Shown here: piece by piece, positions 6,615 through 33,696 of the stretch
Layout: every line of letters starts with the position of its first letter
How positions within the stretch are numbered: the stretch's first letter is position 1
Assembly: GCA_016180085.1 (NCBI GenBank)
Contig: JACPBX010000035.1
Span: 1 to 37,981 of the forward strand
DNA from: Candidatus Woesearchaeota archaeon
GTDB lineage: Archaea; Nanobdellota; Nanobdellia; Woesearchaeales; UBA10216
DNA length: 37,981 bases
Reading direction: 5' to 3'
Translations under genes and position numbers: made by a program
The notes under the pieces: model-generated
Told to the model about the DNA's origin: nothing
The model's input: only the letters and a program-made list of their open reading frames with translations
Databases searched by the model: none

Positions 6615-6820
6615 TAAAAAAGAAAAAGCGTAATCGGTATGCGCTTAGATCGTGCCCAACGATCATGCGGATTCAAACAGCCCTTTTTGCTGCGGCAAAA
6701 CCCAAATCGTGCATAGCACGATTGGGCCCAGTCGTCTTTCAGACGACTTGGGAGCGCTGGCGGAAAACGTCAGTTTTGGATTGACCCTTTTTCCTAAAAG
6801 GGTCACGCTCCCGGCGCATC
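6615..6820 (-). ncRNA. Long tRNA-Ser-derived structured element (family A); candidate antisense RNA, strand inferred
   Basis: 6648-6678 and 6806-6821 match the V-arm/T-arm and the 3' end of the tRNA at 14180. 128-nt multi-hairpin insert at the T-loop. No 5' acceptor strand and no anticodon arm. Minus-strand TATA at 6845-6852 and T-tract at 6612-6626. Confidence 0.6.
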
Positions 6821-21130: not shown

Positions 21131-21300
21131 GATTATGCGCCGGAGCCGGGATCCCACGTCGCTTTGGGCGACGGGGCACAGTCGTGCAATGCATGACTTG
21201 TGTGTCACCCTTTCCATTGCAATGAAAAGGGCTTTGAACCCGGATGGCTGTGGAGTAACCCCGGGTTCGTCTGACCAGTTTCGTAACCCGGCTTTCTTTA
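21131..21300 (+). ncRNA. Long tRNA-Ser-like element (family B); candidate antisense RNA, strand inferred
   Basis: The minus strand folds as acceptor GCCGGGT/CTCCGGC+G73, a D-like arm, no anticodon arm, a V-like arm, and T-arm CCGGG-TTCAAA-[81 nt]-T-CCCGG. Plus strand has a TATA at 21099-21106 and a T-rich end at 21293-21304. Confidence 0.6.
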
Positions 21301-33528: not shown

Positions 33529-33630
33529 GCGGGGATGCCGCAGCGGCCAACCGGGGCAGGCTTAGGACCTGCTGGCTTAGTGCCTTCGGCGGTTCGAATC
33601 CGTTCGGCGGTTCGAATCCGCCTCCCCGCA
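33529..33630 (+). tRNA. tRNA-Leu(TAG) with an 18-nt tandem duplication in the T-arm
   Basis: GCGGGGA/TCCCCGC+A; GCAGG-CTTAGGA-CCTGC; V-arm; TTCGGCGGTTCGAATCCG occurs twice (33585-33602 and 33603-33620). Confidence 0.92.
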
Positions 33631-33696
33631 CTCAACCTTTTTGCGAAAAAGGTTGATCAAAAAACGACTGTAACGGAAGGCAGGAGCGAAAAGAAT

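Follow-up and report, generated by a model that had tools for sequence, protein, structure and literature searches.

We identified a small double hairpin (DH) that is dispersed through the genome of a Candidatus Woesearchaeota archaeon, and we give a probability of roughly 0.75 to the explanation, taken as a whole, that it is a small non-autonomous mobile DNA element and not an intron cassette specific to tRNA genes. DH is the part shared by two tRNA-like elements, e1 (6628-6818, plus strand) and e2 (21292-21136, minus strand), in the window, the stretch of 37,981 nucleotides analyzed here, which is contig C23 of a host genome of ~1.0 Mb that is 83% complete and assembled in 45 contigs. Each element is an older X-type BHB intron of the T loop (position 59/60) that later received a DH copy, and e1 has received a Y-type hairpin as well (Table 1). 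A literature search found no published description of a DH-type repeat in DPANN archaea. In what follows, G000 is the host genome, with contigs labeled C1, C2 and so on, and G001 to G009 are the nine other genomes of the genus.

The first-pass annotation had proposed that the T-loop inserts of the two elements are homologous multi-hairpin modules set in different tRNA bodies. The inserts at 6678-6805 (plus strand) and 21153-21232 (minus strand) are indeed related: their local alignment scored 36, compared with 14.5 +/- 2.4 for 2000 dinucleotide shuffles, none of which reached 36, so that the similarity is significant against shuffled controls (z 8.9), and the best stretch in random windows scored 25. 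The short strings quoted in that annotation were all found where it had placed them, and the tRNA parts around the two inserts do differ. A chance likeness of two hairpin-rich, GC-rich stretches, for which nothing speaks beyond the shortness of the shared pieces, is refuted by the z of 8.9, by the 67-75 bits of both copies, and by a model that finds hundreds of copies in relatives; we regard it as vanishingly improbable. The significant similarity is confined to DH, 6701-6752 aligning with 21202-21153. The GCCCTTTT at the 5' end of both inserts is too short to be significant alone, and is the usual start of a T-loop intron type that recurs in this genome. Relative to e1, the hairpins of e2 carry compensatory changes, one pair going from C-G to A-U and another from A-U to C-G, and its hairpin 1 has one A.C mismatch.

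DH measures 50-52 nt (~51) and consists of two adjoining imperfect palindromes, CCCAAATCG..CGATTGGG followed directly by CCCAGTCG..CGACTTGGG, in which the named sequences are the conserved feet and the tips between them are variable and self-complementary. Twelve aligned copies had a mean column identity of 79% and folded as two adjacent hairpins. Subfamilies with CCCAA.., CACAA.. and TGCAA.. are present, and units are at times nested within one another or stand three or four in a row.

DH is dispersed, and its dispersal is limited to this lineage. The further occurrences of the module that were looked for proved numerous: BLAST and a pattern search placed the unit on many contigs of the host genome, and a covariance model built from DH located it at ~30 distinct places in ~1 Mb, with more in relatives. 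Matches to this model were present in 17 of 40 genomes, comprising the host, every other genome of the genus (nine, with 15-124 strand-matches apiece), 6 of 14 others in the family and 1 of 16 from other families of the order, the last a borderline match at E about 0.01. An exact 16-mer scan of all species genomes returned mostly single chance matches in bacteria, and true copies in Woesearchaeota MAG contigs. The copies lie in tRNA introns, including anticodon-loop introns, in intergenic DNA, in frame in protein genes and in a D loop. The earlier suggestion that the shared module is mobile is therefore borne out, but its description as an intron or homing cassette bound to tRNA position 59/60 is not, given the intergenic, in-frame protein, anticodon-loop intron and D-loop sites. 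Two short contigs (L033, L089) of a MAG labeled Methanosarcinales (CAZBFZ01) also bear DH copies, of 60-63 bits; these contigs are probably mis-binned Woesearchaeota rather than a case of transfer.

Comparison of filled with empty sites showed that DH inserts as a precise DNA unit of ~51 nt, with no target duplication and mostly directly 3' of an A-run. A glycosyltransferase gene (C22:137612-138829) has a 17-aa in-frame insert that is absent in eight orthologues; the DNA site reads CAGAA, 51 nt, AAATTAT, and removal of the insert restores the Q-K-N-Y of the orthologues. A thioredoxin reductase carries an 87-nt (+29 aa) in-frame composite with a subfamily-C double hairpin that five orthologues are without, and the ORF of an intein-containing secretion-type ATPase (C29:42027-43958) is open through a DH copy inside the intein region. 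DH-containing insertions thus add 17-29 residues to enzymes. An intergenic copy at C20:48881 is common to the host and G005, its closest relative, and is absent from G001, G004, G006 and G007. Paralogous empty and filled sites could also be paired within the genome (C36 with e1, C41 with C7, C32 with C11); the DH of e1, for example, follows GGCAAAA, and in the T-loop intron of C36, where the site is empty, GGCAAAA runs directly into GCGCTGGCGG. No target-site duplication was seen in at least five filled/empty comparisons. The flanks equaled the empty site exactly for the glycosyltransferase, for tRNA-Gly of G005 against G008 and for e1 against C36, and to within one A of the A-run for tRNA-Gly of G000 against G001 and for C7 against C41. 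The bases preceding DH were AA in 36 of 63 copies (57%, against a background of 8.5%; the three flanking A columns of the model bias this count somewhat) and AG, mostly within AAAG, in 13 of the 63. DH is tolerated where it is harmless, namely among hairpin repeats between genes, within proteins when the frame is kept, and inside tRNA introns that would be spliced out.

The tRNA-Gly(GCC) genes of eight genomes of the genus (L190-L197) present the same gene at several stages: two are intron-free, three, including that of the host, have one intron and three have two, the introns being built from hairpin repeats. The gene is uninterrupted in G003 and G004; G001 and G009 have an X-type anticodon-loop intron of 46-48 nt; and G007 and G008 have a T-loop intron in addition. 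In the host, the X intron contains DH after CGGAA. In G005, DH lies in another A-run of the same intron, where its flanks, GCGAAA and AAAGCG, together equal the empty GCGAAAAAAGCG of G008, and this gene also has an X+DH intron in its T loop. The anticodon-loop intron has therefore received two independent DH insertions, at different places in two species.

Table 1. Coordinates and composition of the features of e1 and e2 and of the reference T-loop intron
Feature	Position	Strand	Composition
e1 5' part	6628-6664	+	Hairpin GCGTAATCGGTATGCGC and copy of a long variable arm (GATCGTGCCCAACGATC)
e1 T-stem 5' strand and T-loop nucleotides 54-59	6667-6677	+	GCGGA (6667-6671); TTCAAA (6672-6677)
X-type T-loop intron of e1, 5' part	6678-6700	+	CAGCCCTTTTT, GC hairpin, AAAA
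DH copy in e1	6701-6752	+	Hairpin 1, 6701-6726; hairpin 2, 6727-6752; 75.1 bits
X-type intron tail in e1	6753-6773	+	AGCGCTGGCGGAAAACG..
Y-type hairpin repeat with A-rich tail, reverse orientation	6774-6805	+	TTTTGGATT-GACCC..GGGTC-A
e1 3' end	6806-6818	+	T-stem 3' strand reduced to CGC (3/5 pairs), acceptor TCCCGGC, G73, CA
Reference T-loop intron, 23 nt	14255-14277	+	In serine-type tRNA(GAA) 14180-14291; perfect hBHBh', central helix 4/4, T stem 5/5
e2 3' end	21136-21152	-	AT, T-stem 3' strand CCCGG, acceptor 3' strand CTCCGGC, G73, CA
DH copy in e2	21153-21202	-	67.3 bits
e2 X-like short intron	21203-21232	-	GCCCTTTTCATTG/CAATGGAAAGGG hairpin, then TGACA
e2 T-stem 5' strand and T-loop nucleotides 54-59	21233-21243	-	CCGGG (21243-21239); TTCAAA (21238-21233)

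The position that the two inserts share follows from the introns that house them. The 23-nt intron of the 14.2-kb tRNA, a plus-strand gene with a serine-type body, long variable arm, G73 and anticodon GAA, supplied the BHB register, and we scored the strict motif. In this register, T-loop nucleotides 54-57 (TTCA or TTCG) pair with intron positions -6 to -3 (TGAG, TGAA or CGAA) as a 4-bp central helix, the junctions lie in two 3-nt bulges, and the T stem is the outer helix. Because nucleotides 54-57 serve as the central helix, T-loop BHB introns of this lineage are fixed at 59/60, and the inserts share that position because their host intron type is fixed there and DH lands in the A-runs inside it. 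A 4/4 central helix and an intact T stem were found in seven T-loop introns of working tRNAs: that of the 14.2-kb tRNA (e3), those on C11, C36 and C14, and those of tRNA-Gly in G005, G007 and G008. The C11 tRNA and the tRNA-Gly of G005 contain X with a nested DH, yet their BHB is perfect. Neither e1 nor e2 has a strict BHB, as had been noted from the sequence: each scores 2/4 central pairs, e1 having a T stem of 3/5 besides. The C30 element, in which DH alone occupies an otherwise normal, intron-free 7-nt T loop, scores 1/4 and has no BHB. We rejected the possibility that DH supplies a BHB of its own, since in a hand analysis each hairpin had only a 1-nt bulge and the geometry of 3-nt bulge, 4 bp and 3-nt bulge appeared at neither the D-loop nor the T-loop junctions.

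X-type introns start with (C)AGCCCTTTT and end with ..GGAAAACGGCT, the central strand and two further nucleotides. They occur at 59/60 in at least seven T loops of tRNA or tRNA-like genes of the genome, C6, C11, C29:51600, C32 and C36 among them, and at 37/38 in two anticodon loops (C36 and C29:50575). Like transposed introns, they are near-identical in sequence, occupy different tRNA genes and positions, and have a BHB at their junctions; DH itself does not show these features. One tRNA gene, C36:50190-50000 (minus strand; L010/L017), has X-type introns in both its anticodon loop and its T loop, each beginning CAGCCCTTTT, and a DH copy within a Y hairpin just 3' of the gene end.

These introns are the chief reason to consider a T-loop-specific mobile intron cassette, in which X and DH would move as one unit between tRNA genes and home to 59/60. 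The recurrence of X introns at that position speaks for it, as does the location of DH at the same relative place of X in e1, C11 and the G001:C28 gene, and similar intron families of Thermoproteales have been interpreted as intron transposition (PMC4090602). Most DH sites, however, are without X, and X is without DH in C6, C29:51600, C32 and C36. The tRNA-Gly(GCC) intron has DH placed differently in two species, the C30 T loop has DH and nothing else, and the significant similarity of e1 and e2 stops at the limits of DH. A cassette of this kind is thus unlikely as the general explanation, and we favor a mobile DH that enters introns already present, although copying as a unit may explain the trio of e1, C11 and G001:C28.

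The 128-nt insert of e1 is followed by CGC-TCCCGGC-G-CA. Its variable arm is identical to the long variable arm of the serine-type tRNA(GAA) at 14180-14291, and its 5' part is homologous to small RNA genes at 13727-13770 and 13935-13980, upstream of that tRNA; the acceptor 5' strand, D arm and anticodon arm are all absent. A phage-type att duplication, considered for the repeats common to e1 and the 14.2-kb tRNA, was rejected, as the intact gene has the partial copy on its upstream side and it is small RNA genes that the 5' part of e1 matches. The X 5' part found in e1 is also present in tRNAs on C6, C11, C29, C32 and C36. The BHB 3' half that e1 is without (GGCT, TGAA or CGAA, and 2 nt) is present in C11, C36 and C32, and the Y-type hairpin is likewise dispersed, on C18, C3, C1, C41 and others. 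The e1 composite of X, DH and Y, with GGGTCA joined to CGCTCCCGGCG, has a counterpart on G001:C28, in a full-length serine-type tRNA(CAG) gene that has a DH copy in its D loop as well, and the Y junction by itself is found again in other genes of G001, G007 and G009. Since this arrangement and junction recur in relatives, the 3' structure of e1 is inherited, or propagated with gene cassettes, rather than the product of random decay alone. Six serine-type tRNA-like genes, spread over four species and in several cases full-length, have a reversed Y-type hairpin that directly abuts CGC-TCCCGGCG, with 3 nt of T-stem 3' strand; these loci include window positions 6798-6816, L219 (G007:C19), L221 (G009:C45), and L222 and L223 (G001). 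No canonical BHB was found in these six genes, and those on G001:C90 and G001:C114 have no TTCAAA T loop at all.

Element e2 consists of an acceptor-like 5' strand, CCGGG-TTCAAA, an insert of ~80-81 nt and T-CCCGG-CTCCGGC-G-CA, with no anticodon arm. Removing DH in silico leaves a near-canonical BHB intron of 31 nt, with a 3/4 central helix (TTCA/TGAC) and a long inner helix by hand analysis; DH sits directly before the former 3' splice site, where it keeps the central-helix strand and the T stem apart. On C14, a small gene that precedes an intact serine-type tRNA(CAG) by ~300 bp shares 98% identity with the 5' part of e2, and a 13-nt repeat marks the junction. ARAGORN detected neither e1 nor e2, returning from the window a single mis-drawn tRNA at 14.2 kb, and Rfam models gave no match on either element at gathering thresholds or at E<=1. 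Both are without the complete cloverleaf of archaeal tRNA genes with BHB introns. Relatives have neither e1 nor e2 in the orthologous spacers, downstream of S10 and between L44e and S27e, which hold an intact tRNA or only scraps instead. With 5' parts that match small genes, both elements look like fusions that omit the tRNA 5' half. We infer that neither e1 nor e2 is a working tRNA gene and that in each a small-RNA gene became joined to the 3' part of a serine-type tRNA gene, the splice motif now being broken; they may collect insertions because they are probably under little selection. At the level of the whole genome, the Rfam tRNA model reached only 15 tRNA genes, many of them very long, and repeat-filled tRNA genes account for so few being visible to the standard model.

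The hairpins of DH are conserved as pairs rather than as sequence, and this bears on the first-pass alternative of a conserved protein-binding scaffold and, more broadly, on that of a structured RNA which would have a function and be kept in tRNA-derived transcripts. The 12-copy alignment showed double compensatory changes at 9 of 19 pairs and one-sided changes at none, a strong covariation in both hairpins that a scaffold would explain. About 19 of 20 main-subfamily copies, including all those associated with tRNA, are co-oriented with local transcription (a hand count with crude gene calls), and the e1-type composite is conserved in the G001 gene. However, of the 805 pair cells in 44 DH copies from relatives, 792 (98.4%) were Watson-Crick, five (0.6%) were G.T and one was A.C. 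So low a rate of G.T is unusual for an RNA family with such covariation, and for this reason we favor hairpins that act as DNA. The scaffold also fits poorly with DH in frame in the glycosyltransferase and in the ATPase intein region, with the related subfamily-C unit in the thioredoxin reductase, with DH sites that are polymorphic between species, and with the lack of conservation of e1 and e2 at their own loci; no Rfam family matched at up to E 1. The orientation bias could arise in another way, if A-runs are commoner on the sense strand and reversed copies form a hairpin/oligo-T terminator, and DH orientation showed no pattern against local GC skew. A scaffold is therefore not needed and, with pairing almost exclusively Watson-Crick and both elements missing at orthologous loci, seems improbable; given the orientation bias, a role at the RNA level retains a small probability. 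The tips are perfectly paired in nearly every copy but differ from copy to copy, which plain copying of one master does not predict; arm-to-arm correction, or else selection for the hairpins to form, is required.

In the IS200/IS605 and REP systems, hairpins work as single-stranded DNA, and insertion takes place without duplication, beside a short specific sequence and in one orientation. DH would fit a similar single-strand 'peel and paste' mobilization of the HUH/Y1 type (IS200/IS605, REP/RAYT), given its two similar hairpins, its oriented insertion by a short target and the lack of duplication. Searches with Y1_Tnp (PF01797) gave no match in the host genome or in seven of the nine other genomes of the genus, including G008 and G007, the latter 92% complete and with 124 DH strand-matches. 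Presence of Y1 in the other two was uncorrelated with DH, and six Y1 genes had no DH copy closer than about 3 kb. The MAGs of the genus are 67-92% complete, so the absence of Y1 or TnpB is not proven. TnpB (PF07282) was found only in G001 and G007 among genomes of the genus; we rejected it as the mobilizer of DH, as the ends of its element, defined by three copies, are unlike DH, and the two DH copies near the tnpB of G001:C28 belong to the adjoining tRNA gene. Tyrosine integrase (PF00589) is present as one conserved copy per genome, with none in G008. A search of the host genome for single hairpins flanking a gene, as in an autonomous parent, returned only noise and parts of known copies.

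Among known systems, the REP classes are short palindromic repeats (PMC3733652). DH resembles REP/REPIN-RAYT elements and miniatures of IS200/IS605 in being a short imperfect palindrome, often paired, that inserts in one orientation beside a short target with no target duplication. Hairpin ends, absence of duplication and oriented insertion were all observed, whereas a Y1 or RAYT gene was not found in the host or in most DH-rich relatives. The target of DH is a plain A-run, and unlike REPs, which are extragenic, DH is frequent within genes and introns. Rickettsia palindromic elements (Ogata et al. 2000, 2002; summarized in PMC10969869) are bacterial elements of about 100-150 bp that lie in frame in unrelated protein genes. 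DH is like them in being small and palindromic, in occupying a reduced genome, both in frame in proteins and in non-coding DNA, in having no transposase of its own and in being lineage-restricted, and it too has inserted in frame into conserved genes that stay open. It differs from them in its length of 51 nt, its archaeal host, its pair of hairpins, its unrelated sequence and its strong tie to tRNA introns and other hairpin repeats. With classical MITEs (PMC10969869), DH shares the properties of being non-autonomous, multicopy and short, with inverted-repeat ends, and of being able to fuse in frame with genes; unlike MITEs, it has no target-site duplication and, among the elements compared, no parent insertion sequence with matching ends.

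Transposed BHB introns of Thermoproteales (Fujishima et al. 2010; summarized in PMC4090602) offer a parallel for X rather than for DH. Closely similar introns are reported there in different tRNA genes, at 37/38 and 59/60, with a BHB needed at the junctions, and intron gain is considered a DNA-level event whose mechanism is given as unknown. The X-type introns here fit this pattern. DH differs from such introns in not being an intron itself and in lacking a BHB; it is carried inside introns as a passenger and is equally common outside tRNA genes.

For the arrival of tRNA introns in Asgard archaea, a preprint found no general route (10.64898/2026.10.13.758758), and a 2026 Asgard study still describes intron gain as an open step. 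This genus offers the same tRNA gene intron-free, with a repeat-built intron and with a nested mobile hairpin. What the present case adds is the exact junctions together with the tRNA-Gly(GCC) series within one genus, and by means of these, intron growth and turnover can be traced stepwise. It is possible, though doubtful, that the DH, X and Y repeats are spread by an unrecognized enzyme or process, most carrier genomes having no transposase of a known family, and are the raw material for new BHB tRNA introns, with splicing as a safe harbor; in that case the tRNA-Gly(GCC) series would document intron gain as it happens. Splicing would shelter selfish DNA, in that DH is harmless within a BHB intron, yet it also sits in the T loops of seemingly dead tRNA-like genes.

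Other tRNA genes of the genus carry related structures. Two serine-type tRNA(CAG) genes of G001 (L210:650-930 on G001:C28, and L223 on G001:C114) have DH inserted at matching D-loop positions, after ..GAA or ..TAA, with no BHB there; either these are repeatedly duplicated pseudogene copies or the D loop is a hot target. On C41 (25740-25900; L162), tRNA-His is followed by a stretch of ~100 nt that contains DH, and then by a second copy of the last 14 tRNA bases (CCCCGCGGCGGCCC/CCCCGCGACGGCCC). This second copy is preceded by TGAG-GT, which resembles a former BHB 3' half, and either copy could close the acceptor stem. Within the window, tRNA-Leu(TAG) at 33529-33630 (plus strand) has an 18-nt tandem duplication of the 5' part of its T arm (TCGGCGGTTCGAATCCG twice), and a Y-type hairpin with an A-rich tail (CTCAACCTTTTTGCGAAAAAGGTTGATCAAAAAACG) follows directly at 33631-33670. 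Y-type hairpins, as seen there and at C29:50500-50540, tend to take mirror orientations right at the ends of tRNA genes, running tail to hairpin on the 5' side and hairpin to tail on the 3' side, and by base pairing such mirrored copies could form a processing stem that encloses the tRNA.
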